From assembly GCA_029856105.1 (NCBI GenBank), contig JAHQWH010000088.1, positions 1 to 37,431 on the forward strand: a DNA stretch of 37,431 nt, written 5' to 3'. This stretch comes from Promethearchaeia archaeon (lineage in GTDB: Archaea > Asgardarchaeota > Lokiarchaeia > Sigyniarchaeales > SOKP01). A program made the translations under genes and the position numbers. Every line of letters starts with the position of its first letter. The first letter of the stretch is position 1. Below, piece after piece: positions 935 through 21,545 of this stretch. The notes below the pieces were generated by a model, which worked only from the letters and a program-made list of their open reading frames with translations, ran no database searches and was not told where the DNA came from.

Positions 935-985
935 ATCAATCTTTTAAATTTTTTTATTCTTTCTATTTTTCTTTTAATTTTTTAC
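935..985 (+). terminator. Oligo-T archaeal terminator of the thermosome gene, overlapping the island's left boundary
   Basis: T-tracts (cttttaaatttttttattctttctatttttctttt) directly after the TAA at 929. Confidence 0.55.
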
Positions 986-1061
986 TTATATTTTGAGAGA
1001 GTCCACATCCAATTATATCAATTCCGTTAATTGCCCATTTAAGTTGTTCTTTTATATCTTC
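961..1061 (+). repeat. Dispersed repeat R, copy 1 (3' end of the intact small ORF)
   Basis: ttctatttttcttttaatttttt..atattttgagagagtccacatccaattatatcaattccgttaattgcccatttaagttgtt. Confidence 0.9.
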
Positions 1062-1187
1062 GGAATTAATAGATTTGCATAACATTGTTAAATCCACTCT
1101 TACTTCAAGTAATAATGCTATAAGTTCATCGAGAGTTTGATATTTTGGACCGTCTTCTTCTTCTTTTTTTATTTTATTTTCTGATAT
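963..1187 (-). CDS. Small 74-aa hypothetical protein, not in the ORF track; source of the dispersed repeat
   Basis: Manual translation: (M)SENKIKKEEEDGPKYQTLDELIALLLEVRVDLTMLCKSINSEDIKEQLKWAINGIDIIGCGLSQNISKKLKEK*. ATA codon preceded by SD-like GGAGCTGA with an in-frame TGA just upstream. The four paralogous 3' fragments vary mostly synonymously or conservatively in this frame. Confidence 0.75.
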   Translation of the reverse strand: MSENKIKKEEEDGPKYQTLDELIALLLEVRVDLTMLCKSINSEDIKEQLKWAINGIDIIGCGLSQNISKKLKEK

Positions 1188-1348
1188 TTTGCTTCAGCTC
1201 CAAATATTTATGTTTTTCCTATTGTTATGGATGTATCTATTTAAACAAAAATTAATTCTTTTTTGAATGCTTGATATGGATTTTTTTTCACACTTGAAGT
1301 TTAAATACATATTTTAAGAAATATTTTAAAATAGGCAATAATTCAAAA

Positions 1349-3415
1349 ATGGTTAAAGATAAAGAAGAAGCTCCTTATGGTTATATTTATAAAATTACAA
1401 ATACCATCAATGGAAAGGTTTATATTGGAAAAACTGGAAAAACTATAGAAGAGAGATGGAGTAAGCATTTAGAAAATGCGAAGGAGTTAAAGAGAGCGCG
1501 AGAAGCTAATCCTCATGAAAAGAAAGAAGGGTCTCATTTAAATAATGCTATCAATAAATATGGCCCCAATGCTTTTATTGTTAATCAAGAAGATGTTGCT
1601 TATAGTAAAGAAGAATTGAATGAAAAGGAAAGATATTGGGTTAATGAATATGATTCGATGAATCCAGATAAAGGTTATAATATGACCGAGGGTGGAGAGG
1701 GAGGTAGACAGAGTCCGGAAGTAATTAAAAAAATGACGGAGATAAACCAAGAGATAGCAAGGAATCCACAAGCCCTAGAGAAAATGAGTAAAGCAATTTC
1801 AGAGAAATGGCAAGATCAAAACTATCAAAAGAATGTAAGCGAGGGTGTAGCAAATAAATGGCAACAAGCTAAGTTTCGGGAGAGACAATTAAGAGCTAAG
1901 ACAGAGGGTAAAAGGGATATCCCAGATAGGAGAGAATTCTTAAAGGAAATCCTAAATATGAACAAAAAAGATTTAAATACTAAATATGATATGGATGGTA
2001 AATGTATTAATAAAAGAATAGAAGATATGCTTGGTCATCATGGACTAAAAAATTTTTCACAAGCAAAAAAATATCTTGGAGATAAAAATCTTGACGAAGT
2101 ATTAAAGGATATTAATAAATGGCAGAAGGACCACCATCAGAAACCTGAGATAAAGAAGGAAATATTAAATAAGCGAGAATTTTTAAAAGATATTAAAAAT
2201 ATGCAAGGAAAAGAGATCGCCCAAAAATATGATATGAATAGGTCAACAATTAATAAAAGAATACAAGAAATGCTCGGGGAACATGGAGTTCATAATTATA
2301 CAGAAGCTAAAAAGTACCTTGAGAATAAAGATTTAAAAAAAGTCTTGAATGATATAAATGAAAGATTTTCTAAGCAAGCTGAGCGATATCAGGGGACAAC
2401 GGATATAACGGATAAGAAACAATTCCTCCAAGATATTCAAACTATGCAAAAGAATGAGATCAATTATAAATACGATATGGATGCCAAAACTATTAATCAA
2501 AAGATAAGAGAGATGTTAGGAGAACATGGAATTAAGAACTATACAGAAGCAAAAGAATATTTAAAAGATAAAAATGTTGATGATGTATTAAAAGAGATCG
2601 AAGAGAGAAACAAAGAAAAAGAGGTTAAACCGGAATCTCAAGGAGAGGACTCAAAAGATAAAGGGGGATCGAAATCGCAGGATGATTTAAAGGAGAAAAC
2701 AGATAAGGATTCTAAGAGCGATGAAAAAGAAGATCTAAAAGAACCCTCTAAGGAAGAGAACGAAGATAATAAATCAGATAAGAATAAAGAAAATTCAGAA
2801 AGAAATCAAAATCAAGAGGGTTCTGATGAGAATTTAAGAGAAAAGGGGGAAAAATCGGTAGAAATAGAAGAAAGTATCGAGTCTAAAAATAAAGAGACGA
2901 TGGAGGAGGATATATCCAAAGAAGAAAAGGAAAACAATGTTAGGGATTTGGAGGAGATCAAAAGCAAAGATTCGTCAAATAGTGAAGAGGAAACAAAGTG
3001 TGGTAAAAATGTTGATGATATGGAGAATTTGAATCTGACAGTGAAAGAATATGCTGGAATCGATAAGAATTCTTCTGAGAGCGAGCAAGATATAACGTGT
3101 TTAGATGGGGAGCAAGACGGTAAGAATTCTTCTAAGAGAGAGCAAGATATAACATGTTTAGATGAGAACCAAGACAGCAAAAATTCGGGATCAATAAAAG
3201 AGATATATCTTGGTAATGAAGATATAAAATCTATTGAAACTGTTAAAGATATAAAGACAGACGATGAGAAAGATTATACGGACGTTGATGAAGGAGGTAA
3301 AAAGGAACGCCCTGATTATGCGTTTATTGATAATTATTTGGATAAAACTAAGGGAAGTGAAGTAAGTGAAGGTGGCAAAAGAGCTGAAAGAGGGAAGGAG
3401 TATAGACACACATAA
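1349..3415 (+). CDS. GIY-YIG endonuclease with three 81-aa HTH-like repeats and an acidic low-complexity C-terminus
   Basis: N-terminal GYIYKITNTINGKVYIGKT...R.SKH...E...GYN motif set. Repeats start at aa 190, 271 and 352. E/D/K/S/N-rich tail from ~aa 420. Confidence 0.85.
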   Translation: MVKDKEEAPYGYIYKITNTINGKVYIGKTGKTIEERWSKHLENAKELKRAREANPHEKKEGSHLNNAINKYGPNAFIVNQEDVAYSKEELNEKERYWVNEYDSMNPDKGYNMTEGGEGGRQSPEVIKKMTEINQEIARNPQALEKMSKAISEKWQDQNYQKNVSEGVANKWQQAKFRERQLRAKTEGKRDIPDRREFLKEILNMNKKDLNTKYDMDGKCINKRIEDMLGHHGLKNFSQAKKYLGDKNLDEVLKDINKWQKDHHQKPEIKKEILNKREFLKDIKNMQGKEIAQKYDMNRSTINKRIQEMLGEHGVHNYTEAKKYLENKDLKKVLNDINERFSKQAERYQGTTDITDKKQFLQDIQTMQKNEINYKYDMDAKTINQKIREMLGEHGIKNYTEAKEYLKDKNVDDVLKEIEERNKEKEVKPESQGEDSKDKGGSKSQDDLKEKTDKDSKSDEKEDLKEPSKEENEDNKSDKNKENSERNQNQEGSDENLREKGEKSVEIEESIESKNKETMEEDISKEEKENNVRDLEEIKSKDSSNSEEETKCGKNVDDMENLNLTVKEYAGIDKNSSESEQDITCLDGEQDGKNSSKREQDITCLDENQDSKNSGSIKEIYLGNEDIKSIETVKDIKTDDEKDYTDVDEGGKKERPDYAFIDNYLDKTKGSEVSEGGKRAERGKEYRHT
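1916..2610 (+). repeat. Three intragenic repeats with 243-bp (81-aa) period
   Basis: DIPDRREFLKEI..KYDM..INKRI..MLG.HG..N...AK.YL..K repeated at 1916, 2159 and 2402. Confidence 0.9.
3062..3186 (+). repeat. 57-bp (19-aa) tandem repeat, about 2.2 copies
   Basis: DKNSSESEQDITCLDGEQD / GKNSSKREQDITCLDENQD / SKNS. Confidence 0.85.
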
Positions 3416-5345
3416 ACAAGGGACATTATTTTGGCAAACGCGAATAAAAATAACGCAAGCTCCAGGAATATTCGTACCTAAAGAGATACCAGAAAGCGCG
3501 GTTCCATTTTATCAGAAACCGGGAGATATCAGGACATTTCTATACGATCCATTTGGGAAAGAGCCTTCGCGTACTTATGGTCTTGAATTAACCGCAAATG
3601 ATAAAATAGAGGTAATTTTTTTCACTAAAGCAGAATCTGAATCTGAGGCGATACAATTAGGACACGCGTGGCTCTCAAATTTGAAATATAAATTTATAGG
3701 TCTGGATGGAAATGTTAAGGCAAAAGTTATATTAAAAAGTAGCCAAGAATTATTGAAACGAAGTCAATTATTTGAAATAGTTCTCCCTATAGGATTTATT
3801 AAGGACAAAATTAATATCGTTGAAAGATTTATTAATGCCTTTTATTATAAGAACGATCATAAGGTACAGTTATTTCTCATGTGGCGGAGAGAACCACGCT
3901 CTGAAAACCTTGAAGAGCAATCTAATTTATTCAATTTAAGGGTTTTTATAAAATACGATTTAAAGAATTTCAATATAAACGATGAGTTAGAACTTAAAGG
4001 AATTATACAATTTTTATCAATGGATATTGAAAATCGGAAGGCAGAACGAGCACGAATTCTTAACCCCTCTCATATTTCAAATTTAGATATAATAAAAGGA
4101 GACGTGTTCAAAGATGATCAAGAGCGATTAATAAATGTTGTTCAGGAAGATGTTAATTTCGATTTTCCAGAGAATTTACCGCTACCCCGATTACCACATT
4201 TAAAGAACGAAAATGTTAGATATATAGACATAAACAATGATTTTAAGAAAGAAGCGATAAGGGTAGGAAATCACATAAAAGATGGTGTTATCACTAATCA
4301 TAAAACTTACATCCCGATTAATAAACTTCCTCAAGATTTAGCAATATTTGGGAAATCTGGCAGTGGAAAAACGTATTTTCTTGCGCGATTTATAGAAGAG
4401 CTTACCAATAAATCAAAAAATGTCGGGATTTTAGTTCTAAATGTAGCAAAAGAATCTCAAGAAATTTTCTATAATAATTTTATTAAAGTCAAATATTCTG
4501 ATGAGGGATTTAATATACCTTATTTTTTTAATATTGAAAAGAAATCCCTAAAAAAACATTTGCAGGAAACTGCTACTTACATATGCGCCTCGTTAGGATT
4601 AAAAAATGTTTTTGAAAAAATTATATACCGCACCGAAGTAGGTTTTTTAGAGTTAAAAGGTAGATTACCTGAATTCTTTATAGGCTTACTAAGAGGTGTG
4701 GAGACTTACATCAAAAATAATCCATATGGTCCTGAAGAACAAGCTAATTTATTACAAGTCTTTAGAAATCGAATGAACGTTTTTAACGAAGATAAAGTTC
4801 AAAATGTATTAAAAATAACAGATACTTTACCGAAATGGATTGAGGGTTGGTTGAACGGTAAAAACATATTCCTTGATTTATCCATGAGTAGTAAATTTGT
4901 AAAAATGTTGATTGTGAACGCGATATTTCAGCTAATAAGAACAGTTACAAAAGATAGCGAAGCTGAAGAGTTAAAGCATCTCATCGTTATTGACGAAGCT
5001 CACGCTATTTTAGAAAAACCTATTACAACTAATAGCGACGACGCTGATTTTATCATGAAAGAACAGATGGCAAAAATATTTTCTGAATTATTAAAGGAAT
5101 ACCGAAGTAGAGGAGTAGGTATTATAATCGCTGATCAATCTCCCGCTCGTTTGTTTGATGACGTAGTATCTCAACCAAGCATAAAAGTTATTTTTAGGGA
5201 GGATTACCCGAATAACCTCCTTTTTTCAGAAGATCCTATTGAACGACAAATTTTAACGCAGTTAGCAAATAGACTCGCATTGGTGATAAATGGTGCAACT
5301 GGGGAAAAATATCTAATCAAAACATTGGACTATGAATTATCATAA
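3366..5345 (+). CDS. HerA/FtsK/VirB4-superfamily ATPase (DUF87-like)
   Basis: Walker A GKSGSGKT, Walker B LIVIDEAH, EYRSRGVGIIIADQSP (Arg finger and Q motif). Overlaps the end of the GIY-YIG gene; start uncertain (GTG 3366 or ATA 3402). Confidence 0.88.
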   Translation: MKVAKELKEGRSIDTHKQGTLFWQTRIKITQAPGIFVPKEIPESAVPFYQKPGDIRTFLYDPFGKEPSRTYGLELTANDKIEVIFFTKAESESEAIQLGHAWLSNLKYKFIGLDGNVKAKVILKSSQELLKRSQLFEIVLPIGFIKDKINIVERFINAFYYKNDHKVQLFLMWRREPRSENLEEQSNLFNLRVFIKYDLKNFNINDELELKGIIQFLSMDIENRKAERARILNPSHISNLDIIKGDVFKDDQERLINVVQEDVNFDFPENLPLPRLPHLKNENVRYIDINNDFKKEAIRVGNHIKDGVITNHKTYIPINKLPQDLAIFGKSGSGKTYFLARFIEELTNKSKNVGILVLNVAKESQEIFYNNFIKVKYSDEGFNIPYFFNIEKKSLKKHLQETATYICASLGLKNVFEKIIYRTEVGFLELKGRLPEFFIGLLRGVETYIKNNPYGPEEQANLLQVFRNRMNVFNEDKVQNVLKITDTLPKWIEGWLNGKNIFLDLSMSSKFVKMLIVNAIFQLIRTVTKDSEAEELKHLIVIDEAHAILEKPITTNSDDADFIMKEQMAKIFSELLKEYRSRGVGIIIADQSPARLFDDVVSQPSIKVIFREDYPNNLLFSEDPIERQILTQLANRLALVINGATGEKYLIKTLDYELS

Positions 5346-5551
5346 TACAAGCAAAATACAAGTATAGAGTGCCAGTGGATTTCCATATTTCATATCTGAT
5401 TCTACATTCTCAAGATATTCATTAATAATTTCATAAGAATTTCCTTTGAAATCATACTCTGAATTTACCATTCAATACGAACTTTCATCATGTAAGCAAT
5501 TATTGAACTAGATAAATACAAAAAAATTAAACAAAAAAAAAATAGAATCCG

Positions 5552-5566
5552 GAACACACTCCCACC
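5552..5566 (+). repeat. 15-bp direct repeat GAACACACTCCCACC, left of the Rab-like gene
   Basis: Identical copy at 6832-6846; both are preceded by A-tracts. Confidence 0.75.
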
Positions 5567-5744
5567 ACCTCACTTCTCAGCTCAAACCATGATAATTACC
5601 AGAAACTGTTTTAAAAGTTTTAGACTAAGTGAAACCATTAATTTAAAATTAAATATCCATATTTTTATTATAGTCAAAGTGTATCGTTGTTAAAAATCAA
5701 TTTGAGGAGAGAAGAAGAAAATTCAAAGGGAGGAAAAAATCTAA

Positions 5745-6779
5745 ATGTATGACCTTCTGTTTGACGTTACAGTTCTGGGTTCTGAACAAGTAGGAAAAAA
5801 AACCTTTGCGAAATGTAAATTCTTAGATTTCAACGATCACGATTACATGTTCTCTCTTGGCATGGATTTCTCTCTAAAAACAGTCGAAATCGATGAGACA
5901 ATAGTTAAGTTACGTTTCATTATATATAGTTGCGCACAATATTGGTGGGAAGAGACTCCAAAAAGTATTTTACCAAGTATGGTTCGTGGAGCATTTGGAG
6001 CAATAATACTCTACGACGTTACAAACTCAAAATCTTTAGAACGGATTCCTCAGTGGATTAAGGTCGTAAAAGATAACGCAGGGGAGGTTCCAATTTTATT
6101 AGTAGGAAATAAACTCGATTTAAAACAAGAACGAGAAATAACAATAGAACAGATAGAAAAGATTAAAAATGAGCATGATATAGCGTCATCGATGGAGATT
6201 TCCGTAAAAACGGGAGAAAATATGGAAAAAATGGTTTCGAACTTAACCCGTATGATACTAAATAGCTATAAATCGATTGCGAAAGCTAGAATCGATGTCG
6301 ATGAATACAAAAAACGGATGATAACATACATAAATCAAGCAGAAGAAGGAGTTAATTTACCCGATGATTATCAAAATTTAGCAGAATTGATCGAACGGTT
6401 AAAGAACGCAATTAATACTATTATACATAGGAACGAACGAAAGGAAAAGATCGTTTATGGTTATGTCCTTTTAATTCGGAATTGTTTCGACTTATTAAAA
6501 GAACCTATTCTTCTCCTTGATAAAGAAATATTACAAACAAACATTGATCAAGCCTATAAAAGTATCCACGATATTTTGAGACGAGATCGATCAATCTATT
6601 ACAACACCCATTTAATGATGATGATGTTTCTTGGAACAGATCAAACTAGACAATTCTTCAGCAAGTATAAAGTAAAAGAACCCAGATCTCTAAAGCCCAT
6701 ATTACCTAAAAAATGGTACTTATATGCTTTATACCTCATATTTGCTATTGTAATTTTTATATTACTAAAAGCTCTTTAA
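5745..6779 (+). CDS. Rab/Ras-like small GTPase domain (degenerate G1/G3) with helical extension and C-terminal TM anchor
   Basis: GSEQVGKKT (G1-like), LGMDFSLKTV, GAIILYDVT, ILLVGNKLDL (G4), EISVK (G5). DxxG is absent. Hydrophobic tail WYLYALYLIFAIVIFILL. Confidence 0.85.
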   Translation: MYDLLFDVTVLGSEQVGKKTFAKCKFLDFNDHDYMFSLGMDFSLKTVEIDETIVKLRFIIYSCAQYWWEETPKSILPSMVRGAFGAIILYDVTNSKSLERIPQWIKVVKDNAGEVPILLVGNKLDLKQEREITIEQIEKIKNEHDIASSMEISVKTGENMEKMVSNLTRMILNSYKSIAKARIDVDEYKKRMITYINQAEEGVNLPDDYQNLAELIERLKNAINTIIHRNERKEKIVYGYVLLIRNCFDLLKEPILLLDKEILQTNIDQAYKSIHDILRRDRSIYYNTHLMMMMFLGTDQTRQFFSKYKVKEPRSLKPILPKKWYLYALYLIFAIVIFILLKAL

Positions 6780-6831
6780 TTAACAGAAAACTTTTGGATA
6801 AAACATAAAATCGAAAAAAAATTAAATTCAA

Positions 6832-6846
6832 GAACACACTCCCACC
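6832..6846 (+). repeat. 15-bp direct repeat GAACACACTCCCACC, right of the Rab-like gene
   Basis: Identical to 5552-5566. Confidence 0.75.
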
Positions 6847-6950
6847 CTTCAATCTCGAAACATTCGTATCGTCTGCCGCACTACTCTAATCCCTCACTCA
6901 CTCTAAGCCTAAATGTCTTAATGTATGACTTGGGCAGCATTGTTGAGTTC

Positions 6951-7673
6951 TTATGTTACAGAATGCAAAACAAAAGGAAAATAAACAAACATTATTTCGA
7001 TCTTAGAATTAAAACATAAAAATTGCTCCATTCTTATATCTCCAAAGCATGCAAACCCACAACTATAATGATATTCTAAATTCATTCGAACTAAAAAAGT
7101 GTCATTTAAGGCAATAGTATAAGAATTACTGGGAGACAAGGGGATTTGAGTAAAATTTAGATACCAATTGCCCTCCCAATTTGACGTATATTTATTAGTG
7201 GAATAATCCCAACATCGATCAGCCGCAAATATTTCTGTGTGGTTTGAATACTCTGCTTTAATAATATTATCATTGTTGTACGTGAGATATATTAACGATT
7301 CATTAGTAACATCCACTGAGTAAATAAAATTAAATCGATCCCCTGGAAATAAATGAAATCTATTCTTTTCTCCATCGATTTTCAGCTTTAAGGATTCTAT
7401 GAATTCTCTATCAATGTTATCATAATAATAATCAGAAGTATTTAATGGACCTTCCCCCCAGGAATCTCGATAATGGCAATACTTTTTATATTCAAATAAT
7501 TCGCTCTTTTCGATAACAGTCTCAAAATTTTCAACGTTTCCTTTATAATTTATCTCGTAATAGATTCTTGATAAAGCGGTAGAATGATTAACAATTAATA
7601 AGATTGGTATGATTACTCCAGCCGTTATTATTACTCCTATTATAACGGAGATATATAATAGCTTTTTTCTAAT
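6951..7673 (-). CDS. Membrane-anchored/exported hypothetical protein, ~240 aa (longer than the 121-aa track ORF)
   Basis: Frame stays open upstream of 7316 as far as 7679. ATT at 7673, after GTGAGGGA, gives (M)RKKLLYISVIIGVIITAGVIIPILLIV, a basic-plus-hydrophobic signal anchor. Confidence 0.7.
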   Translation of the reverse strand: MRKKLLYISVIIGVIITAGVIIPILLIVNHSTALSRIYYEINYKGNVENFETVIEKSELFEYKKYCHYRDSWGEGPLNTSDYYYDNIDREFIESLKLKIDGEKNRFHLFPGDRFNFIYSVDVTNESLIYLTYNNDNIIKAEYSNHTEIFAADRCWDYSTNKYTSNWEGNWYLNFTQIPLSPSNSYTIALNDTFLVRMNLEYHYSCGFACFGDIRMEQFLCFNSKIEIMFVYFPFVLHSVT

Positions 7674-7841
7674 ATTCCCTCACTTCCCTTCTTAATATAG
7701 TAATGATATTATAGGTTTTAACATTCTCTTCAACAGTGGAAAATAGTTCAGTTGATACTAAGAATTTTTTTGTTCATTTTTTTGTCTTCTTTTTTTAGTC
7801 TGACCTTAGAAGAATTTAGGATAACCACGTTTATATTTTTA

Positions 7842-8380
7842 ATGCTTTACCGAAATGGATTGAAGGTTGGTTGACCGGTAAAAACATCTTCCTTGATTTA
7901 TCCATGAGTAGTAAATTTGAAAAAATGTTGATTGTGAACGCGATATTTCAGCTAATAAGAACAGTTACAAAAGATAGCGAAGCTGAAGAGTTAAAGCATC
8001 TCATAGTTATTGACGAAGCTCACGCTATTTTAGAAAAACCTATTACAACTAATAGCGACGACGCTGATTTTATCATGAAAGAACAAATGGCAAAAATATT
8101 TTCTGAATTATTAAAGGAATACCGAAGTAGAGGAGTAGGTATTATCATCGCTGATCAATCTCCCGCTCGTTTGTTTGATGACGTAGTATCTCAACCAAGC
8201 ATAAAAGTTATTTTTAGGGAAGATTATCCGAACAACCTCCTTTTTTCAGAAGATCCTATTGAACGACAAATTTTAACACAGTTAGCAAATCGACTTGCTT
8301 TGGTGTTAAATGGTGCTACAGGTGAGAAGTACTTAATCAGAACATTAGAACATAGCCTAGATAAATTCAAGAATAGTTAA
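7842..8380 (+). pseudogene. Orphan 3' fragment of the HerA-like ATPase with an alternative C-terminus
   Basis: Aligns to 4822-5329 at offset 3020. Lacks Walker A; ends LIRTLEHSLDKFKNS instead of LIKTLDYELS. Confidence 0.92.
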
Positions 8381-8580
8381 TATTAATTATAACTCGTTAG
8401 AAAAAAAGATCTCAAATAACAAGTTATTAAAATTTTATGTGACAAAATCTTTTAGAATTTGTTGTTGGATATTTAACCAAAAAATATATACTCCATATCA
8501 TGAAAATTAAAAGAGTAAATAAATTAATACATTAATTTTTTTTAATATTTGAAACGAAATAGTAAAAAAAGGTTAAAAAT

Positions 8581-8700
8581 ATGAATGTTTTATTAATTAT
8601 TATTGTTATTGTAGTAGTAGTAGTAATTTGCGTTAGTTGGTATGAAAAACATAATAGGAGAAAAAAATCAAAAGAAGTGAATAAAAATGAAGCAAATTAA
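8581..8700 (+). CDS. Putative 39-aa single-TM microprotein
   Basis: MNVLLIIIVIVVVVVICVSWYEKHNRRKKSKEVNKNEAN*; AGG upstream; overlaps the start of the next ORF. Confidence 0.45.
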   Translation: MNVLLIIIVIVVVVVICVSWYEKHNRRKKSKEVNKNEAN

Positions 8701-8845
8701 AGTTATTGAATACATGAAAATTAAAGAAGTTGAGAGTGAACTAAATAAACATTTAAGCGTTCTGCCCAATAGTAGATTGGTTAGTATAACTTTTAATGTG
8801 AAAGAAAGAAGATATTACGGGTTTATCGAATTTGAACCAAATTAA
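8687..8845 (+). CDS. Putative 52-aa small protein
   Basis: MKQIKVIEYMKIKEVESELNKHLSVLPNSRLVSITFNVKERRYYGFIEFEPN*, followed by a long T-tract terminator. Confidence 0.5.
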   Translation: MKQIKVIEYMKIKEVESELNKHLSVLPNSRLVSITFNVKERRYYGFIEFEPN

Positions 8846-9030
8846 TCTTTTTTTTTTAATTTTTTATTAAATATTTTTAAATTTAATCTCAAGAAACAAA
8901 TTTAGGCGTAAGACTTATTTTAATAAAAATATAAAAGAAATTAAACACCATAAATATTTAATGATAAAAACCAAAATAAAGCAATAAATGATTATTTCAC
9001 TTGTTATATATAAAAGAGGTCTATAAAAAA

Positions 9031-12901: not shown

Positions 12902-12961
12902 TTTTTTTTATCTCATATATGAAATAGTCCACGTTTATATAATTCAAAAAAGATTAAAGCT
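12902..12961 (-). pseudogene. Orphan 3' end of a DEDDh exonuclease allele
   Basis: Aligns to 9627-9686; encodes ALIFFELYKRGLFHI* versus AKILFELYKRGQFSI*. Confidence 0.8.
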
Positions 12962-13061
12962 AAGGAATTATATGACAGAGTTAAAAAAAATTTCCCTGAA
13001 TATCTCAATAAGCTAAATCAAGCTATAAAAAAATTTTAATCTATACTGTAAAAGATAAAAA

Positions 13062-13979
13062 TTAAAAAGGTTTCGAAGAACATCTACCTCCTTTCGATGT
13101 CCTCATGTCAGAAAAACTAGAAGCGACAAGGTTGTGTGAATGGAAGAGCCGTTGATCTTCAAGAGCTTGACAAAGTTTACTCAGAAAACTAATAAATCCC
13201 TTAATTTGATTTTCTACTATTAAATCATTAAAAAAACCTTCTCTAAATCCCTCCTTTTGCCACATTTGGTTTTCATGTAAAAATAATGGATACTCTTTGA
13301 TAAGTTTTGAAGGAAAAAATTGTGGCCAACGAGGATTATATGGTATTTTCCCCCCATATTTTTTTGAGAAATCAACTCTACCTTGTACGTTATATGGTAT
13401 ATCCCAGTTCAAAGATATTCCCTTCCGCATAATATATAGATAATCAAATCTTTCACTTGGTTTTATATCATTCTCATTTACAATTTTTGTTATATTTTTT
13501 AAAATTGAACCAAATTTCTTCCAAATTGTATCATAAGCGAAAATATAACAGAGAGGTGGATGAACTTGCCATCGAGGATTACCATCCAATCTTTTAAAGA
13601 AATTCATCCTCCTTAAATCTCTGATCTTTAAAAGCGTTTCTTTTAGATTAGTATTTCCTAAGGTTGTTTTTACTTCAATACACATAGAAACACCTTCAAT
13701 GAGAAAGTATTCCGTTTCTGAAAAAATTCGAGGGTATTCGGTTGAATTCCAGATAACTATATCTTGCTCAGTTGATTCCTTTCCATCTTTATCAAATAGA
13801 ATTTTACTTCTTGTTAACTCAAATTTTCTGGGTAAGAAAGATTTTAGGAGATTGATGAGAACAGCCTCATTTTCTCTTCCTTTTATTGCCTGATGATTAT
13901 AAAGAGAATTTAAATTACTAATACTTTTATAAAATTTTTCATAAATTAATTCCCATAAGAGGTTCTTCTTTGATTTCAT
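13062..13979 (-). CDS. NucC/DUF6602-like restriction-fold endonuclease
   Basis: GRENE..L..FLP.KF....FD.DG.ES.EQDIVI...IEGV...IEVKT pattern (D..ExK). Confidence 0.7.
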   Translation of the reverse strand: MKSKKNLLWELIYEKFYKSISNLNSLYNHQAIKGRENEAVLINLLKSFLPRKFELTRSKILFDKDGKESTEQDIVIWNSTEYPRIFSETEYFLIEGVSMCIEVKTTLGNTNLKETLLKIRDLRRMNFFKRLDGNPRWQVHPPLCYIFAYDTIWKKFGSILKNITKIVNENDIKPSERFDYLYIMRKGISLNWDIPYNVQGRVDFSKKYGGKIPYNPRWPQFFPSKLIKEYPLFLHENQMWQKEGFREGFFNDLIVENQIKGFISFLSKLCQALEDQRLFHSHNLVASSFSDMRTSKGGRCSSKPF

Positions 13980-14147
13980 ATATAGATCTTTAGGTAAAAC
14001 TAATATATAATTTTGAAGTTAAAAGATATTTCTTGTTTAAACAGGCTCTAATTTAATACAAAAGCATAAATATTATAAAAAAATAATAATGGGTTAAAAC
14101 TCCGGTTTTTATAATAAAATCATACAACTAATAGAGGTATAATATAA

Positions 14148-14720
14148 ATGTGTGCGGATTTATCCTTAGTAGAAATAATAATATTATTAATTTCTATAAT
14201 TGGATTAATATTAAGCATCATAAACTTGGTAAAAAGTGCATTACATGAGAAAAGATATAAATACCAGCTTAAAATCAAATTGAAAAAAGATTTGTTAACA
14301 AAATGGTTTGAGATTGCAAAAGATTTTGTAAAACTAGTAGAATTTAGTAGAATTGAGTCAACGAACACTCATAAATACTATTACTATGAGATAAAGAAGG
14401 AAAATAGTAATGAATATTTGGATTTAGAGAATAAAAAAGGTTTTATTAATAGATACGAGTATGCTATGACTAATTTTACAAAATTCTGCCAATATCCTGA
14501 TGAGACTGCTGGACCCTTTGATATACCAAGATTATTAAATGTCAATAAAAATATGGATATTGAATTTATTAGTTATCCATTATCGTTAGATCCTGGAAAT
14601 GAAGAAAAAATAAAAGAAGAGTTTTTAGAAGACGTTAAAAATCATGGTCAAATGAATGGTATAAGAATTAAGGGATTTCGCTGGTGGAAGATGAAAAAAA
14701 TCTTAGGAATTCTTTATTGA
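14148..14720 (+). CDS. Hypothetical protein with N-terminal TM helix
   Basis: 190-aa ORF; GAGGT upstream; hydrophobic residues 7-28. Confidence 0.65.
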   Translation: MCADLSLVEIIILLISIIGLILSIINLVKSALHEKRYKYQLKIKLKKDLLTKWFEIAKDFVKLVEFSRIESTNTHKYYYYEIKKENSNEYLDLENKKGFINRYEYAMTNFTKFCQYPDETAGPFDIPRLLNVNKNMDIEFISYPLSLDPGNEEKIKEEFLEDVKNHGQMNGIRIKGFRWWKMKKILGILY

Positions 14721-14893
14721 GATTTTAACTTAAAAAAAAAATTATTGAAGAGAGACCTTTGAGTATCCTAAATTATATTATTTGAAGATAATATGATTCC
14801 ATTAGTTCTCAAGTAAGAAATTCTAATTATTATATAATATAAATTATACATTTTATTGTAGTTTTTAAATCTCTAACCCTAATAAAGAATCAA

Positions 14894-15157
14894 ATGTTAA
14901 ACTTTTTGGATATTTCTGACTTCAATTTATTTTATTTAATTCTAATCCTTATTTTAGTTGGACTTAATATAGTTTTTTTCATATCTCAGAAAAGAGAAAA
15001 GTCAGCTATTAACCTAAAAATTCTCATCATTATTCTATTGGTAATTACAATAATTATTTTCGTTTCGACTTCGTTAAATTATCTTACTTCTACGGATGAA
15101 TCAATAAAATCCTCAGAAAATGTACTTTTTAACAATATATTTCTATTTTTCTTTTAA
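14894..15157 (+). pseudogene. Membrane-protein gene apparently truncated by repeat R copy 2
   Basis: Two TM segments; the last codons (FLFFF*) are supplied by repeat sequence beginning at 15141. Confidence 0.55.
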
Positions 15158-15210
15158 TATTTTAGCGATATTTTGAGTGAGCTCACATCCAACAATATCA
15201 ATTCCGTTAA
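15141..15210 (+). repeat. Repeat R copy 2 (orphan 3' end of the small ORF)
   Basis: Minus strand encodes VNGIDIVGCELTQNIAKILKEK*. Confidence 0.9.
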
Positions 15211-15395
15211 CGAGTATAGTTAAATAATATTTGGGCCTCAAAACTGTTAAGATCAGTTTGAAAAATTTTTATAATTTTAATAATCTATTCGTTTTTAAGT
15301 TCTACCTCTTTTTTTTAGTTGTTCCATTTTTTTCTTTAATCTGTGATTTTCAGACGATCACAATTTATTTATAAAACAATGAAGGAGTAAGATTT

Positions 15396-16925
15396 ATGAA
15401 GATAAGTATATTAAACGATGTATTAGGGCCAATTCTGCATGGACCTAGTAGTTCACATACCGCTGCTTCCTATAGTATTGGTCGGTTGACCCATATGTTA
15501 TGTAAGAACGAAATAAAGGAAATTCATATTACATTTGATTCAAAGGGTTCTTTTGATAAGACATATAAATCTCAAAATGGAGATGTTGCGTTCTTATCGG
15601 GGATACTTAATTTAGGTGTTGATGTTCCTGACTTTTTTAATTCTAAAAATGTAGCCAGTGAAGAAGGAATTAGAAGTATCTTCGATTCTAAAGATATTCC
15701 TGAAGCAGATCATCCAAACTATATGTCAATTAATATTCCTGCTAAGAAATTAACAATAGTAGCGAAATCCATAGGAGGAGGCATGATTCTGATAGAAAAG
15801 ATTAATAGGTGGAAAGTTAAGCTTAAAGGAAATAATTATAATATATTAATCGAATTTCTTACAAATTCCAAGGAAGAACTACTGAATTTAATTCAATCAT
15901 TTTCTAATTCTCCAGAAAAAATACATATCCAAGATGATGAGAGGTATTCTTTTATTCAACTAAAGAATCCAAATAAGTTTAAAGATGAATTTGTTAATAA
16001 ATTAAAATCTCTAGATTATATTTCTAATATCTGGACTACTCAACCTATACTTCTTCCGATTCATGGGACTCCGTTGTTTAAAAATAGCTTTGAGATGCTA
16101 AAGCTTGCAGTTGAGAATAAGTATTCTCTCGGAGAGATTGGGCTTATGTACGAAACAGATTTATTGAACGTAGATGAAAAATCCATTTTAGAAGAAATGG
16201 AAAAAAGGATTTTAGTAATGTTTTCTTCTATTGAAAAGGGTTTGGAAAAGAAAAATTCGTGTATGAAATTATTGGAGCATTCTGCAAGTAATATCCAAAA
16301 AAAAGAGAATCTGCTTTTCAGTTCTGGAATTAATTTAAGAAGTTCTTATAGGGCTATGGCAGCTATGGATACAGCTTCTTCAGGGGGACTGATCTGTGCG
16401 GCCCCTACAGGCGCTTCTTGTGGTGTTATTGCTTCTGTTCTTTATACACTCCATTACGATTGTAATATTAATATGAAAAAGATTATTAAATGTGCACTTG
16501 CAGCAGGAGTGATTGGTTTAATAAACGGCATGAATTCAACTTTTGCTGCTGAAATAGCGGGATGTCAAGTTGAGATAGGAATGGCTGGAGCAATGGCAGC
16601 GGCAGCAGTGATCGAAGCTGCTAATGGTAGTCCTACAGCAGCCACAGAAGCGGCAGCGATTGCATTGCAAAACACAATGGGATCTGTATGCGATCTTGTT
16701 GCGGGATTCTGTGAAATCCCTTGTCACACTAGAAACGCAGTGGCAGCGTCAAATGCGTTTATTTGTGCTGATCTTATTATAGGTGGTTATAATAATCCAA
16801 TAAATCTTGATGATTCAATCCAAGCATCGTTTGAGAGCGGTAAGATGTTACCCTCTCAATTACGTTGTACTTCATTAGGAGGAATCGCGATCACAGAATC
16901 AGCAAAAAAATTGGGGAGAAAATAA
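15396..16925 (+). CDS. sdaA: Fe-S L-serine dehydratase, fused beta and alpha subunits
   Basis: GPILHGPSSSHTA, SIGGG, AAPTGASCG, GCQVEIG, GSVCDLVAGFCEIPC, LRCTSLGGIA. Confidence 0.9.
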   Translation: MKISILNDVLGPILHGPSSSHTAASYSIGRLTHMLCKNEIKEIHITFDSKGSFDKTYKSQNGDVAFLSGILNLGVDVPDFFNSKNVASEEGIRSIFDSKDIPEADHPNYMSINIPAKKLTIVAKSIGGGMILIEKINRWKVKLKGNNYNILIEFLTNSKEELLNLIQSFSNSPEKIHIQDDERYSFIQLKNPNKFKDEFVNKLKSLDYISNIWTTQPILLPIHGTPLFKNSFEMLKLAVENKYSLGEIGLMYETDLLNVDEKSILEEMEKRILVMFSSIEKGLEKKNSCMKLLEHSASNIQKKENLLFSSGINLRSSYRAMAAMDTASSGGLICAAPTGASCGVIASVLYTLHYDCNINMKKIIKCALAAGVIGLINGMNSTFAAEIAGCQVEIGMAGAMAAAAVIEAANGSPTAATEAAAIALQNTMGSVCDLVAGFCEIPCHTRNAVAASNAFICADLIIGGYNNPINLDDSIQASFESGKMLPSQLRCTSLGGIAITESAKKLGRK

Positions 16926-17053
16926 TCAATTTTTCATTACATTAAATTGTGTGCGATCTCGTGAAAAAAACTTTCAATGTTAAGTCCTGTTAGCGCTTCG
17001 GTTCAAAGTTTTTTAATAAATATTCTGCATTTTTTCTATGGTTTAGTTTTTCT

Positions 17054-17143
17054 TTCTATTTTTCATTTAATTTTTTCTTGATATTTTGAGATAGTCCACA
17101 GCCGACTATATCAATTCCGTTTAAGTTCTTCTTTAATATCTTC
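17054..17143 (+). repeat. Repeat R copy 3 (with an ~11-bp internal deletion)
   Basis: Minus strand encodes NGIDIVGCGLSQNIKKKLNEK*; similarity resumes at ttaagttcttctttaatatcttc. Confidence 0.9.
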
Positions 17144-17262
17144 TTACTTCTTTTTGAACTGAAAAATTTGACAAAATAGTAAGATTTAAATTATTATCAA
17201 GCTTAATTATCAATGCAAAATCTAATAATTAATCAAATTAAAATTACTCAAATGTGAGAATT

Positions 17263-17589
17263 ATGGTTATGGTTGTATCTACATCTTGGTTTCCAACAAG
17301 TAAATCCGCTGAAGTAGGGAAAAAATATCTTGAAGTCTTGAAACAATTTCCTCGGGATAAAACAATTTCAAAAGTTATTGTACCCGTAGGCGTAAGAACA
17401 ACATCAGATGGAATGAAATCCTTTTCGATTTTTGAAGTAAAAGAAGGGAAATTAAAGGAATTCATGAACATAGCTTACAAGCAAATACTCATTTACTCTG
17501 AAATTGAGGGATATCAAACTGAAATGGAATTTTACATGTCAGGAGTAGAGGCATTACCACTTGTAGGACTTGAAATGCCTGAATTATAG
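17263..17589 (+). CDS. Small hypothetical protein X, copy 1
   Basis: Close paralog of 20102-20422; ATG after GTGAG (the track starts at GTG 17254). Confidence 0.8.
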   Translation: MVMVVSTSWFPTSKSAEVGKKYLEVLKQFPRDKTISKVIVPVGVRTTSDGMKSFSIFEVKEGKLKEFMNIAYKQILIYSEIEGYQTEMEFYMSGVEALPLVGLEMPEL

Positions 17590-17776
17590 ATCAAAAATAA
17601 TTAAATTTTTTTTATCTTTTTTTTTTTTTAATTTTTTACTGATATTTAATTGATTATTCAATATGGGGTTTTTCAAAGCAAGCACCTAACAGAATCAGCT
17701 ATTTTATATTGACTACGACTTACTATGCCTTTTTCCTTTCTTTACCTAAAAATCTAAGTCTTTTCATTATTTTTAA

Positions 17777-18400
17777 TTAATCTTTTGAAAGAGCAAGAAT
17801 GATCTTATTTAGTAATTGGAGGAAATATTCATCAGACTCAAAAGTATACTCATCATAAATATGGCGATGGATTAATGTATCAACAATCCTATGAATATGT
17901 TTTTCCTTTCCCTCAAACTTAAGATCTTCTTGAGGGAACTTTTCTAAAAGAGTTTTAATAGGCTTAAAAAAAAGGTTCGTCTCGATCTGACGAGCTTCTT
18001 TGGATCTGATATCATTTTTTAATTTATCATAAAAGCTAATGTTAGAAAGAACTTCGCTTTCCATCGCAGCTAAGAATAGGCGATTTTTTCTATGATTCTC
18101 AATTAATGCTAATAAATATGTGTTTAACCCATCTGAAAAGTTATTAATTTCCTTGTCAGCGAAAAAATTTTGAGAGTTCAAATCTTCTGAAAATTCAATG
18201 GTTGATTTTACTATTATTTCTTTCAGAAGATCTATCTTCCCCTTCTTAAAATGATGATACAAGGTTCCAACACTAACGTTAGCTAGATAAGTTATATCAC
18301 GGATATTTGTATTGCTATACCCTTTCTCTAATATCAATTTTTTAGCGATTTCCAGAATTTTATCTTTAGCAGACTTTTTACTCATATCTTTAATATACAT
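17777..18400 (-). CDS. TetR/AcrR-family transcriptional regulator
   Basis: KILEIAKKLILEKGYSNTNIRDI...VSVGTLYHHF.K HTH; start may be ATG 18385. Confidence 0.92.
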   Translation of the reverse strand: MYIKDMSKKSAKDKILEIAKKLILEKGYSNTNIRDITYLANVSVGTLYHHFKKGKIDLLKEIIVKSTIEFSEDLNSQNFFADKEINNFSDGLNTYLLALIENHRKNRLFLAAMESEVLSNISFYDKLKNDIRSKEARQIETNLFFKPIKTLLEKFPQEDLKFEGKEKHIHRIVDTLIHRHIYDEYTFESDEYFLQLLNKIILALSKD

Positions 18401-18419
18401 ATAATAAAATAAAAAACTT

Positions 18420-18503
18420 TCGAATTCGATTCGGTTTCGATATCTTTAAATATTATTATGAATATTTTTATCATAATAACTAGAAAGCGAATCGGTTTCT
18501 AGT
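18420..18503. promoter_or_regulatory. Two related palindromic operators in the divergent TetR/hydrolase promoter
   Basis: ACTAGAAAGCGA-A-TCGGTTTCTAGT (18479-18503, one mismatch) and TCGAATTCGA-T-TCGGTTTCGA (18420-18440). Confidence 0.7.
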
Positions 18504-18532
18504 ATAATCATTAGAAAAAGAGGTTAAAATAA

Positions 18533-19813
18533 ATGGCAAAACAAAAAAAGAACCAAAAAAATGAAAGAAGATCCCCTGATGCAGGTTTTAAAATCTTTAA
18601 AGACCCAGAAATGGATTGGACTTTTGCCCGTACACTCCAATACATCTATGAAAACGCAGCAGAAGTTGGAGAATGTCTCCGTGTAGCCCGTAGAATTAAT
18701 GAAAAGAATAGAGAGAGCTGGATCGAAGAATGGGCTAATCTTGCCTTAAAAAAAGAAATTAAGGCCATAGAATCCCTTACTAAAGGACACAGAATTAGTG
18801 CAAGAGAATTATTTTTATGTGCTTCGAATTACTACAGAACCGCTGAATATGCAACACCACCTTCACACCCACGCTTTCATGAACTTTGGGAGAAAAGTGT
18901 TGAGTGTTTTCATAAGGCTTGCCCATTATTTAGTCCCCCAATTCAGATAGTTGAGATATCATTTAATAATTTTAAATTACCAGGGTATTTCTGGAGCCCA
19001 GATACAACTAATACTCATCATCCCACTCTAATTGCCGCAGGTGGAAACGATACTTCACTAGAAGAAGTTTTTTTCTTATGTGGACCAGCAACAGTAAGGC
19101 GAGGATATAATTTTTTTACATTTGAACATCCTGGTCATCGAGGAGCTGTTCATCTCTATCCTAATTGTACCAGACGACATGATTATGAAATACCTTATAA
19201 AGTAGCGATCGATTTTCTTAAGACATTTAATGGCGTGGATGATAGAATTGCGTTAACGGGATTTAGTTACGGTGGATATGTAGCTACTAGAGTAGCAATT
19301 TATGAAAACCGTATTAAAGCTGTTATTCCAAATACACCTATTATAGATATGGTCAAAATGCAAAAATCTTTTGGAGGTAATTCTCGAAAACGTAATCTTT
19401 TACTTAAAATTCCAGCTTCTTACCTTAATCGACTTATAGAACGAATGCTTAGCAAGATGCCATTACAATATACCCTCGCAAAATATGTTCTATGGGTATT
19501 TGGAATGCATGAACTCTCTTGGACTGAGGTTATTAAGAAGGATATGTATAAAAAGCACAATATTAAAGATCAGATTCATAAAATAAAATGCCCGGCTCTC
19601 GCAATAGTGAGCGATAGTGAAGGAGAAGAACTATTAACTCAAGCAAAAGAGTTCATTAAAGGTATTTCTTCAGATGTCAAAGAAATTTACATTTTTAATT
19701 TAGATAAAGATGGCTCAAATGATCATATTCAACTTGATAACCGAATAAGTGGAAATCAAATAATGTTTGATTGGCTTGATGAAATTTTTGATTACAACGC
19801 TCAATTGATATAG
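18533..19813 (+). CDS. Alpha/beta hydrolase (FrsA / dihydroxypseudooxynicotine-hydrolase-like)
   Basis: Nucleophile elbow GFSYGG; ASNYYRTAE, LPGYF and GGND motifs; C-terminal His and FDWLD. Confidence 0.85.
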   Translation: MAKQKKNQKNERRSPDAGFKIFKDPEMDWTFARTLQYIYENAAEVGECLRVARRINEKNRESWIEEWANLALKKEIKAIESLTKGHRISARELFLCASNYYRTAEYATPPSHPRFHELWEKSVECFHKACPLFSPPIQIVEISFNNFKLPGYFWSPDTTNTHHPTLIAAGGNDTSLEEVFFLCGPATVRRGYNFFTFEHPGHRGAVHLYPNCTRRHDYEIPYKVAIDFLKTFNGVDDRIALTGFSYGGYVATRVAIYENRIKAVIPNTPIIDMVKMQKSFGGNSRKRNLLLKIPASYLNRLIERMLSKMPLQYTLAKYVLWVFGMHELSWTEVIKKDMYKKHNIKDQIHKIKCPALAIVSDSEGEELLTQAKEFIKGISSDVKEIYIFNLDKDGSNDHIQLDNRISGNQIMFDWLDEIFDYNAQLI

Positions 19814-19915
19814 GAGAGTCTGAGAAATTTACAAAATTCAGGATTAGTATAAATTTATTAAATACATTTTTTTCTTTTTTTTCTCTAAAACTAATGAATA
19901 GTATCTAAATTTCCA

Positions 19916-19994
19916 TTCTATTTTTCTTTTAATTTTTCTTTTATATTTTGAGAAAGCCCACATCCAACTATATCAATTCCGTTGATTGCCCATT
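19916..19994 (+). repeat. Repeat R copy 4
   Basis: Minus strand encodes WAINGIDIVGCGLSQNIKEKLKEK*. Confidence 0.9.
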
Positions 19995-20101
19995 GAACTG
20001 AATAATTTGACAAAATAGTAAGATTTAAATTATTATCGAGCTTAATTATTAATGTAAAATCTAATTATCAATTAAATTGAAATTACCCAAAGGTGAGAAT
20101 T

Positions 20102-20422
20102 ATGGTTGTAACTACATCTTGGTTTCCAGCAAGTAAAGCCTCTGAAGTAGGGAAAAAATATCTTGAAGTCTTGAAACAATTTCCTCGGGATAAAACAATT
20201 TCAAAAGTTATTGTACCCGTAGGCGTAAGAACAACATCAGATGGAATGAAATCCTTTACGATTTCTGAAATAAAAGAGGGGAAATTAAAGGAATACATGG
20301 ACCTAGCTTACAAGCAAATACTCATTTACTCTGAAATTGAGGGATATAAAGCTGAAATGGAATTTTACATGTCAGGAGTAGAGGCATTACCACTTGTAGG
20401 ACTTAAAATGCCTGAATTATAG
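20102..20422 (+). CDS. Small hypothetical protein X, copy 2
   Basis: Paralog of 17263-17589; SD AGGTGAG before ATG 20102 (the track starts at GTG 20093). Confidence 0.8.
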   Translation: MVVTTSWFPASKASEVGKKYLEVLKQFPRDKTISKVIVPVGVRTTSDGMKSFTISEIKEGKLKEYMDLAYKQILIYSEIEGYKAEMEFYMSGVEALPLVGLKMPEL

Positions 20423-20543
20423 CTCAAAAATAATTAAAATTTTCTTTTTTTATTCTATAAGTAAATATTGATATTATTGCTTAGATTTTTCAAACCTATA
20501 ATGTTATTATTTCTATATTAATGTATTATAAAGTTGATTTAAA

Positions 20544-21407
20544 TTGAGGATAGATTTCCACTGTCATATTTTTCTTAATGTTAACGCGTTTCAGGCATTC
20601 AAATTATACAATCAAAAGTTTAGCGGCTACGGGTTCTACAAAAGAATTCTTAAAATGCTGGAAGGGATTAAAACTATCAACACAGATAATATTATAAAGA
20701 AGACATTATATCATTTAGAAAGAGTTAAAATAAATAAGGTAGTTATGCTCCCAGTAAGTGAAAAGGAAAACGTGGCTGTAAGTGAGTGGGCACGGAATGC
20801 ACCTGATATCATAATTCCTTTTTTCAATCCCCCAGAGAGGCTGGATGATAGTAAAGGCATAAAAGAGATTATAGAAAAGGCAATTTTAGATGATAATTAT
20901 AAGGGATTTAAAATAATGGTATCCTTTAGAAAAAAGAAATTGAATGACAAAATCTTATATCCGGTTTTAGAAACGGCGCATGAGCATAAATTACCTGTCC
21001 TATTCCATACGGGTTATCCTCCACCTGGAACTCAGAAAAGCGTTCTAACTTTTTCTAATCCTATTGTTATTGATGAGTACGTTAATTCATTTCCGGATGC
21101 TAAAATTATCATAGCGCATATGGGATATCCTTGGGTTGATAATGCTCTTGCTTTAGCGGTTCAATATCCCAATATATATTTAGATATTAGCAATATGACC
21201 TATATGATGCCAAATCGTTTAAAGGACTTTCTGGTATATGCTAAAGAGCTTATTGGATTGGATAAAATATTATTTGGATCGGATGGGTTTGTCCCAGAAA
21301 TGATTGAAATTGCTGTAAATTACTTTAATAACGTCAATTTTCTAACTAAGGAGGAAATTGATAACATTTTAGGGTTGAACGCTCAAAAATTGTTAAAAAT
21401 TGAATAG
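20544..21407 (+). CDS. Amidohydrolase-family (Amidohydro_2-like) metal-dependent hydrolase
   Basis: IDFHCH, GFK, PVLFHTG, IAHMG, YLDIS, LFGSD. Confidence 0.9.
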   Translation: MRIDFHCHIFLNVNAFQAFKLYNQKFSGYGFYKRILKMLEGIKTINTDNIIKKTLYHLERVKINKVVMLPVSEKENVAVSEWARNAPDIIIPFFNPPERLDDSKGIKEIIEKAILDDNYKGFKIMVSFRKKKLNDKILYPVLETAHEHKLPVLFHTGYPPPGTQKSVLTFSNPIVIDEYVNSFPDAKIIIAHMGYPWVDNALALAVQYPNIYLDISNMTYMMPNRLKDFLVYAKELIGLDKILFGSDGFVPEMIEIAVNYFNNVNFLTKEEIDNILGLNAQKLLKIE

Positions 21408-21457
21408 AAAAAGACTATGCTGCGTTTTTAATTGATAATAATATAATTTGTTTTTCT

Positions 21458-21545
21458 TTCTATTATTCTTTTAATTTTTTAGCTATATTTTGAGAGAGTC
21501 CACACCCGATTATATCAATTGCGTTGATTACCCATTTAAGTTGTT
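21458..21545 (+). repeat. Repeat R copy 5 (candidate right boundary of the island)
   Basis: Minus strand encodes QLKWVINAIDIIGCGLSQNIAKKLKE*. Confidence 0.9.

Follow-up and report, generated by a model that had tools for sequence, protein, structure and literature searches.

Repeated ends of a small gene in a hypervariable Lokiarchaeia island: possible scars of homology-anchored integration

Why does one locus of a Lokiarchaeia genome carry several copies, all facing the same way, of the last part of a single small gene? The question is raised by a 37,431-nt stretch of DNA (the window), which is contig C89 of a Promethearchaeia metagenome-assembled genome (MAG) labelled G000 (GCA_029856105.1; 3.66 Mb in 238 contigs, 92% complete, 6% contamination). 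The window has a GC content of about 30% and opens inside a gene for the thermosome (Cpn60/TCP-1); the small gene whose end is repeated, here called G, lies beside it. The explanation that we favour, with somewhat more confidence than doubt, is that the repeats are scars in an additive genomic island, left by circular DNA that integrated through shared homology in the Campbell manner. The comparison covers 42 genomes of the genus, labelled in the same style, plus public contigs including those of GCA_023705845.1; all compared genomes are metagenome assemblies, and the relatives are not independent samples.

Repeat family D1 consists of five direct copies, each about 100 nt long, at 945-1048, 15125-15228, 17038-17141, 19900-20003 and 21442-21545; copies 2-5 are 66-88% identical to the first. 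Five co-oriented repeats had been described in an earlier note on this DNA, and both a repeat family search and a search of the whole 3.66-Mb assembly, which recovered them at E values of 1e-18 to 1e-32, agree with that description. The whole-assembly search, which the note had suggested, added a sixth, 47-nt mini copy (17601-17647) and no other convincing one: all copies sit at a single locus and face the same way. Read on the minus strand, they correspond to the final ~21-28 codons of an open frame at 963-1190, and every window copy sits downstream of a plus-strand gene. The translations quoted earlier for the five copies are correct, as is their assignment to the 3' end of a 74-aa gene: at least seven congeners share the frame from end to end at 72-79% identity. 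The copies do not start at the stop codon, as had been thought; homology reaches about 10-20 nt beyond it.

The individual copies, all on the minus strand, differ in extent. The first (O1, 945-1048) comprises the last ~28 codons of G and ~18 nt downstream. The second (O2, 15125-15228) covers gene nt ~158-228, and the fifth (O5, 21442-21552) covers gene nt ~140-241, its last lysine codon being replaced by a premature stop. The orphan copies had been said to break off after 70-90 bp, which fails for two of them: copies 3 and 4 extend as a decayed pseudogene to about codon 24-33. With these decayed upstream parts, O3 occupies 17038-17220 and has an 11-nt deletion, while O4 occupies 19900-20064 and has a 34-nt deletion; the two deletions are complementary. 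The mini copy (gene nt ~195-244) stands right after the stop codon of an open reading frame (ORF), ORF111, and is shared with G017.

Gene G itself (963-1187, minus strand) runs from an ATA start at 1185-1187 to a TAG stop at 963-965; in the numbering used here nt 1 is the start codon and nt 223-225 the stop codon. Upstream lie a conserved TATA-like box (TTTAAATAG, 1237-1245) and a GGAG (1198-1201). The start codon is ATA in eight of nine aligned genomes and ATG in the ninth (G010) and in several database homologues; because of the ATA start, gene callers shorten the gene or read an upstream TGA as W. Homologues number 84 small proteins in Lokiarchaeia-type assemblies, with strongly conserved residues; public records list homologues under Lokiarchaeia or Lokiarchaeota. 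Pfam and PADLOC searches with G gave no match, and an Atlas look-alike search returned unnamed clusters only. The AlphaFold model of G is a two-helix hairpin (pLDDT 85) with no match in the PDB at E<=0.001. In congeners across the genus, G lies tail-to-tail with the thermosome gene, whose product is 82-93% identical in amino acids in 12 congener loci and 43% identical in G046, a member of another family; Cpn60_TCP1 is also called next to G in public contigs.

Where did the orphan copies come from? The ratio of nonsynonymous to synonymous differences (pN/pS), computed over the last 21 codons of G only, is 0.24 for intact alleles against each other, 0.38 for the window orphans against the resident gene (synonymous excess p=0.013) and 0.28 for the window orphans against each other. 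The dN/dS check proposed for the minus frame therefore gives values well under 1, a coding-type divergence. Variation among the copies follows codon positions, with the limit that the four window orphans taken alone give counts (7:7:13) short of significance, which only the site-corrected and pooled tests reach. Cassette B, the block that ends at copy 3, is together with the left part of that copy 98.4% identical to G017, whereas identity is 87% in the thermosome flank and 87-94% in other flanks. For copy 3, identity reaches 94% with copies in G028 and only 80% with the resident gene. The coding-type divergence, the contrast of 98.4% with 87% and the closeness of copy 3 to G028 together argue that different functional alleles gave rise to the orphans, which moved along with cargo. 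The earlier note had proposed such an origin "rather than decay in place"; the allelic origin stands, and the exclusion of decay does not, as small deletions and a premature stop are seen. The repeat in G017 joins the left-hand part of copy 3 to the right-hand part of copy 5 and has an insert of ~175 nt, a composite that shows several overlapping events.

The interval in which the copies lie is a hypervariable island. It is bounded by the thermosome gene on the left and a cyclase gene on the right, and the distance between the two is 24 kb in the window, 8 kb in G017 and 12.7 kb in G015 (three genomes measured); G008 has no match to the cyclase, and its thermosome gene stands ~4 kb from the 742-aa ORF of the right flank. 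At least 9 of the 42 genus genomes and one public genome hold two or more G 3' fragments in the interval, always co-oriented, and the cargo between them varies from genome to genome. Metabolic cargo includes serine dehydratase-like, amidohydrolase, SMP-30 lactonase and short-chain dehydrogenase genes and a corrinoid protein with a URO-D-like gene; other cargo encodes tetratricopeptide repeat (TPR)-ATPase and SIR2-TPR proteins, and defence cargo in the window forms a block with HerA-like ATPase, CD-NTase-like and NucC-like genes. Cargo orientation is mixed, and the cassettes bring their own promoters. Repeat-to-repeat blocks, compared between genomes as the note had suggested, are present or absent as units. 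The data show the cassettes, their exchange between genomes, the reciprocal set of junctions and the genome-wide pattern described below. The count of one to three cargo genes per interval needs an exception for the first interval (1049-15124), which has ~14 genes. No integrase, transposase or resolvase was found among the array ORFs of 13 loci.

The two ends of the repeat behave differently. At the outer end, nearly all copies stop at about nt 245-250, ~20 nt beyond the stop codon. The inner end is ragged and falls anywhere from gene nt 90 to 205 across copies; in three genomes, for example, the SMP-30 cassette meets G at nt 166, 127 and 107. The earlier proposal of a defined site for cutting or recombination within the coding sequence is therefore not supported, because the inner end is ragged and the sharp end lies outside the coding sequence. 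On the plus strand, the outer 50 nt are T runs that follow the thermosome stop codon directly (O1 likewise shows oligo-T runs 3' of that codon), and the lysine-rich tail of G is their complement. Where a genome lacks G, 30-55 nt of the G end still stand beside the thermosome gene. Oligo-T tracts terminate archaeal transcription, and the T-rich outer part may therefore be retained as the terminator of the thermosome gene. One piece of DNA would then have two apparent roles, as the lysine-rich tail of G and as the T-rich putative terminator of its neighbour. A separate observation concerns G016 (L047, contig C51, locus 10715-10826), where ~45 nt of the thermosome 3' end stand in front of a G fragment; no other case was found in which the duplicated segment crosses the intergenic spacer.

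Does recombination pass through the repeat? The junctions of the SMP-30 cassette form a reciprocal set. In G027 the junction is attP-like (left arm-[gene nt 221-170]-right arm), whereas in G002 the cassette is bordered by [250-166]-right arm and, at its opposite side, by left arm-[221-95], which is attL/attR-like. This set is as expected if a circle with a 52-56-nt patch crossed over with the resident gene. The G027 contig concerned (C144, L049) ends in an exact 77-nt repeat (7913-7989 and 8952-9028) that leads back into the cassette; this loop, of the kind that a k-mer-length repeat makes in an assembly graph, indicates a tandem or circular form.

Gene order at other copies of the locus is consistent with insertion at the end of G. 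The order in GCA_023705845.1 (thermosome gene, truncated G, 129-aa gene, full G, GIY-YIG gene, HerA gene) is the classical outcome of gene-end insertion. The classical geometry is seen in G011 as well, where the 5' end of G lies at the far side of its array. In G015 a nearly full-length pseudo-G directly adjoins cassette B through the same junction as O2 of the window; O2 is the remnant of a G copy that once adjoined this cassette. O3, in turn, is what remains of a G body adjoining ORF111. Copies 3 and 4 look like remains of the original gene body, because ORF111 adjoins the right flank in four relatives (G008, G011, G031 and G004, where it stands beside the cyclase or the 742-aa gene) and a decayed 5' part of G lies just upstream.

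The same pattern recurs across the genome. Comparison of the assembly with itself yields 95 direct local repeats against 1 inverted one, with gaps of 0.4-20 kb; some of the 95 are tandem paralogues or within-gene repeats. At seven or more other loci, a full gene is followed by one or two cargo genes and then by an orphan copy of the last 60-500 nt of that gene. The repeats at these loci are 60-600 nt long and unrelated in sequence, and they end between -41 and +28 nt from the stop codon. Two of the loci were checked in relatives, those on contigs C18 (6900-9262) and C107 (28577-31678), and empty sites are present in G017, G064 and G002; in G015, the cargo of the C107 locus natively adjoins the gene. 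The two repeat copies on C18 are 88.8% identical to each other, less than the 94-95% at which the flanks match the empty-site genomes. Resident DNA was therefore not the source of the duplication at insertion, which argues against a target-site duplication. The pattern of single-nucleotide polymorphisms on C18 places both copies about equally far from the empty-site alleles. The order of full gene, cargo and orphan is what a single crossover with a circle gives, not linear end-joining. Further loci of this kind lie on contigs C32, C63, C132, C96, C11 and C85; on C85 the geometry is inverted as it is for G, with the orphan 19 kb upstream.

A model that would account for these patterns has G as its anchor, placed at the edge of a hypervariable region and tail-to-tail with the thermosome gene. 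A circle from a related strain would bring one or a few cargo genes together with a patch of G, from 50 nt up to the whole gene. A single reciprocal, Campbell-type crossover with a resident copy of G would then integrate the circle, and each integration would add one 3' end of G. Redundant copies of G would subsequently lose their 5' parts by deletion, and loop-out, re-integration, unequal exchange between repeat copies and erosion could follow later. The outer end would be sharp since the conserved gene unit ends there, and the inner end would be ragged since patch lengths and later deletions vary. The intact G beside the thermosome gene most likely came with the first block of the island (interval A), which would have crossed over with an older orphan copy. 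We infer that the intermediate is circular, that general homologous recombination is at work and that the events came in this order.

Several points weigh against this model. More than ten unrelated left flanks meet the same outer boundary to within 3 nt; such precision seems to exceed what a pure homology limit would give, and a site-specific step could be involved. The intact G of the window lies on the "wrong" side of the orphans for a simple insertion into G, and an extra event must therefore be assumed. The model supposes, for these organisms, recombination over 50-100 nt at 85-90% identity. The loop in G027 could be a tandem copy, which makes the indication of a circular cassette an indirect one. 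Finally, where array blocks are joined through the repeats, their order is not fully secure in metagenome assemblies.

The precision of the outer boundary leads to the rival that survives best, although we consider it unlikely: the repeat would serve as the attachment site of a site-specific recombinase that acts in trans, such as an Xer-like enzyme, and the cassettes would resemble integrative mobile elements exploiting Xer (IMEX) or pdif modules. Besides the sharp outer boundary, a 29-nt core (gene nt ~193-221) is common to all copy classes, though the patch limits differ, and the patch of one cassette is only 52-56 nt long and bounded on both sides. A tyrosine recombinase is encoded by 38 of the 42 genus genomes, mostly as a single Xer-like gene of ~315 aa, on other contigs than the arrays; none is linked to any array. 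Neither PF00589 (tyrosine recombinase) nor PF00239 (serine recombinase) has a match in the whole 92%-complete assembly of G000, whose own Xer-like gene probably lies in the unassembled part of the genome. Against an attachment site, no dyad-symmetric site is seen by eye in the repeat, and no attC-like fold emerged: among ten folds (five copies, both strands), eight had z between -0.11 and +0.82, and no structure was shared. No O-like site occurs elsewhere in the genome, and the same geometry appears at the other loci with unrelated repeats.

Less probable again is that G and its upstream neighbours are themselves an integrative element, one that targets the region downstream of the thermosome gene and carries its attachment site in the end of its own gene. 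The distribution of G is patchy, as such an element would have it: the gene is intact in about 9 of the 42 genomes and absent or a stub in about half. In one lineage, G adjoins a different convergent gene. The geometry of the window, moreover, needs a circle that carries G. What counts against an element is that the order thermosome-G-GIY-YIG is common to several families, which fits vertical descent. No relatives of G on viruses or plasmids were found in IMG/VR, nor was any G on a viral contig, and no replication or integration genes travel with it.

A third possibility assigns the activity to a neighbour of G: the GIY-YIG protein with its HerA-like ATPase would cut near the end of G, and break repair would capture or swap cassettes there in the manner of a free-standing homing endonuclease. 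The GIY-YIG gene stands divergent beside G in the window, G030, GCA_023705845.1, G046 and another public contig. The protein has three helix-turn-helix (HTH)-like 81-aa modules and an acidic tail. Arrays are nevertheless equally rich without the nuclease (G017, G015, G011, G027, G028 and G016), so that they occur both with and without its gene, contrary to what a homing endonuclease would require, and the other loci would be left unexplained. The HerA-like ATPase matches the PADLOC HerA and mad8 defence models, which, with the defence-like interval, makes a role in defence more likely than one in cassette exchange. We regard cutting by this pair as very doubtful.

The two last rivals concern the DNA at hand. 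That the resident gene end was duplicated locally and then decayed in place would suit the small deletions and the premature stop of the orphans, and is highly improbable in view of their coding-type divergence, of a copy 3 that resembles alleles of other genomes (94%) more than it does the resident gene (80%), and of its cassette (98.4% to G017, with a thermosome flank at 87%). Least credible of all is a chimeric assembly that strung strain variants together through the repeat: the 238 contigs and 6% contamination of the MAG and the contigs of several relatives that break at these repeats could suggest it, but the copies differ by 10-34% and share few long exact k-mers, the junctions cassette B-O3-ORF111 and ORF109-amidohydrolase recur in the independent assembly G017, and multi-copy arrays exist in at least nine other assemblies.

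Two further candidates were rejected. A miniature inverted-repeat transposable element (MITE) or other non-autonomous transposon would not fit a repeat with a single locus and a single orientation, without inverted-repeat ends or hairpin. tRNA genes as insertion targets are ruled out, none being found in the window.

How does integration of circles at a gene end compare with known systems? In single-crossover integration, both copies of the homologous segment become hybrids, and the reversal loops the insert out. The island shares with Campbell-type or suicide-plasmid integration the arrangement of full gene, insert and orphan patch as direct repeats; the gene order, the empty sites in relatives (C18 and C107) and repeats already diverged at insertion (on C18) all agree with it, as does the TetR-hydrolase block of the window, with its 86%-identical flanking repeats and its uninterrupted form in G017. 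Unlike the laboratory construct, what is inferred here is natural, recurrent gene gain between diverged Asgard lineages. Tandem islands at tRNA genes are described for Prochlorococcus. The present anchor, by contrast, is the end of a protein-coding gene, no array has an integrase, the patches range from 50 nt to a whole gene, and many unrelated gene ends are used. Islands that an integrase inserts at a gene 3' end are likewise flanked by direct repeats of the target 3' end, but here no element-encoded integrase lies next to the junction. IMEX elements and pdif modules, which borrow the host Xer, are alike in being small integrase-free cassettes with short conserved sites in tandem arrays; the repeats studied here differ in having no dif-like dyad and in being unrelated in sequence from locus to locus.

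The closest likeness is in part to the additive flexible islands of Alteromonas (PMC4898812, PMC3698932), where a conserved-gene hot spot holds small cargo blocks between direct repeats of a 3' end, with a sharp outer end, a variable inner end and content that differs among close relatives. Integrons have been reported in Archaea (PMC9668308). The arrays resemble them in their stacked cassettes of one to three genes, each with a recombination site of ~50-100 nt, and in a cargo of mostly single enzymes and defence genes. They are unlike integrons in having no IntI, a site that is coding and lacks a hairpin (z ~0), no attI/Pc arrangement, mixed cargo orientation and cargo with its own promoters. 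The integrated elements of Atabeyarchaeia encode tyrosine integrases and use an 11-bp motif (PMC11529989); they too have Asgard hosts, integrated and excised forms and an AT-rich attachment motif, whereas the present cassettes encode no integrase and share 50-600 nt with their target. A search of the literature turned up no account of this locus, nor of gene-end arrays without an integrase in Asgard archaea.

The broader interest lies in how genes are gained. To our knowledge, little is known about accessory-gene gain in Asgard archaea, and the mobile elements described there use integrases or are viruses. This locus and the seven or more others suggest a simple route, in which short conserved stretches of gene ends anchor circles and arrays accumulate; among the cargo here are defence systems and metabolic enzymes as well as a Ras-like GTPase. 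If the route is real, one island that is hypervariable across the genus is accounted for, as are the breaks of MAG contigs at this locus, and a homology patch of 50-500 nt on a circle would be a practical way of inserting DNA in genetically intractable organisms. A bolder proposal, speculative and in our judgement improbable, is that Lokiarchaeia possess an integron-like but integrase-free platform for gene capture, in which single-gene circles with a ~50-nt patch of a host gene end are inserted and excised by a dedicated activity at many gene ends, spreading defence genes and eukaryote-like genes (e.g. small GTPases). The GIY-YIG/HerA-like pair or a host Xer recombinase might supply such an activity, with G as a cofactor.

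The content of the window can be followed from left to right. The 3' part of the thermosome gene (3-929, plus strand) is the conserved left flank of the island. Behind O1 and gene G lies interval A (1349-15124), a defence-type island with internal repeats. It begins with the GIY-YIG gene (1349-3415) and the HerA-like ATPase gene that overlaps it (3366-5345), followed by a Ras-like GTPase gene (5745-6779). Further on lie genes for a PD-DExK-like, PDC-S69-like protein (9001-9612), a DEDDh exonuclease (9638-10210), a HEPN protein (11218-11991), a CD-NTase-like cyclase (12164-12811) and a NucC-like nuclease (13062-13979). Taken together, the defence-type cargo at 9001-13979 looks like a set resembling the cyclic-oligonucleotide-based antiphage signalling system (CBASS).

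The GIY-YIG and HerA-like genes may form a two-gene defence system, a candidate proposed from sequence, with G as a possible third part. The pair is kept beside G in G030 and GCA_023705845.1; in G046 and one further public contig, the GIY-YIG gene alone adjoins G. Two orphan 3' ends of the ATPase gene lie within interval A (7842-8380 and 10323-10383): the segment 4822-5329 recurs at 7842-8349 (95%) and at 10323-10383 (87%). These repeats bracket the Ras-like GTPase cassette and the PD-DExK/DEDDh block, an accretion in the classical geometry.

To the right of O2, cassette B (15229-17037, plus strand) holds a serine dehydratase-like gene (15396-16925, Pfam SDH_alpha) with its own upstream and downstream regions; besides its near identity to G017, it is 90.6% identical to G015. 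ORF111 (17254-17589, plus strand) is 87-93% identical in at least eight congeners. The block that follows (17657-19899) consists of a TetR-type regulator gene (17777-18400, minus strand) and an alpha/beta hydrolase gene (18533-19813), and is flanked by 609-nt direct repeats (17048-17656 and 19910-20483) that are 86% identical. At E<=1e-15 none of the other 41 genomes of the genus yields a DNA match to it, and the pair was therefore probably acquired from outside the genus; the uninterrupted form, without the block, is present in G017. Next comes a stretch on the plus strand (20093-21407) with ORF109, which is a second copy of ORF111, and an amidohydrolase gene (20544-21407); this stretch is contiguous in G017 at 93% identity.

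The conserved right flank begins with the cyclase gene (25253-26053, plus strand) and continues with the 742-aa ORF, a histone deacetylase gene and a profilin gene, so that a Ras-family GTPase and profilin are both encoded in the window; with the Lokiarchaeia homologues of G, they fit an Asgard archaeon of Lokiarchaeia type. Just before the cyclase, a family-4 glycosyl hydrolase gene (23710-25251) is a clean 1.5-kb insertion relative to G017 and separates the cyclase from its upstream region. It has no flanking repeat longer than 3 nt, and a 95%-identical copy of the gene lies on another contig of G017.

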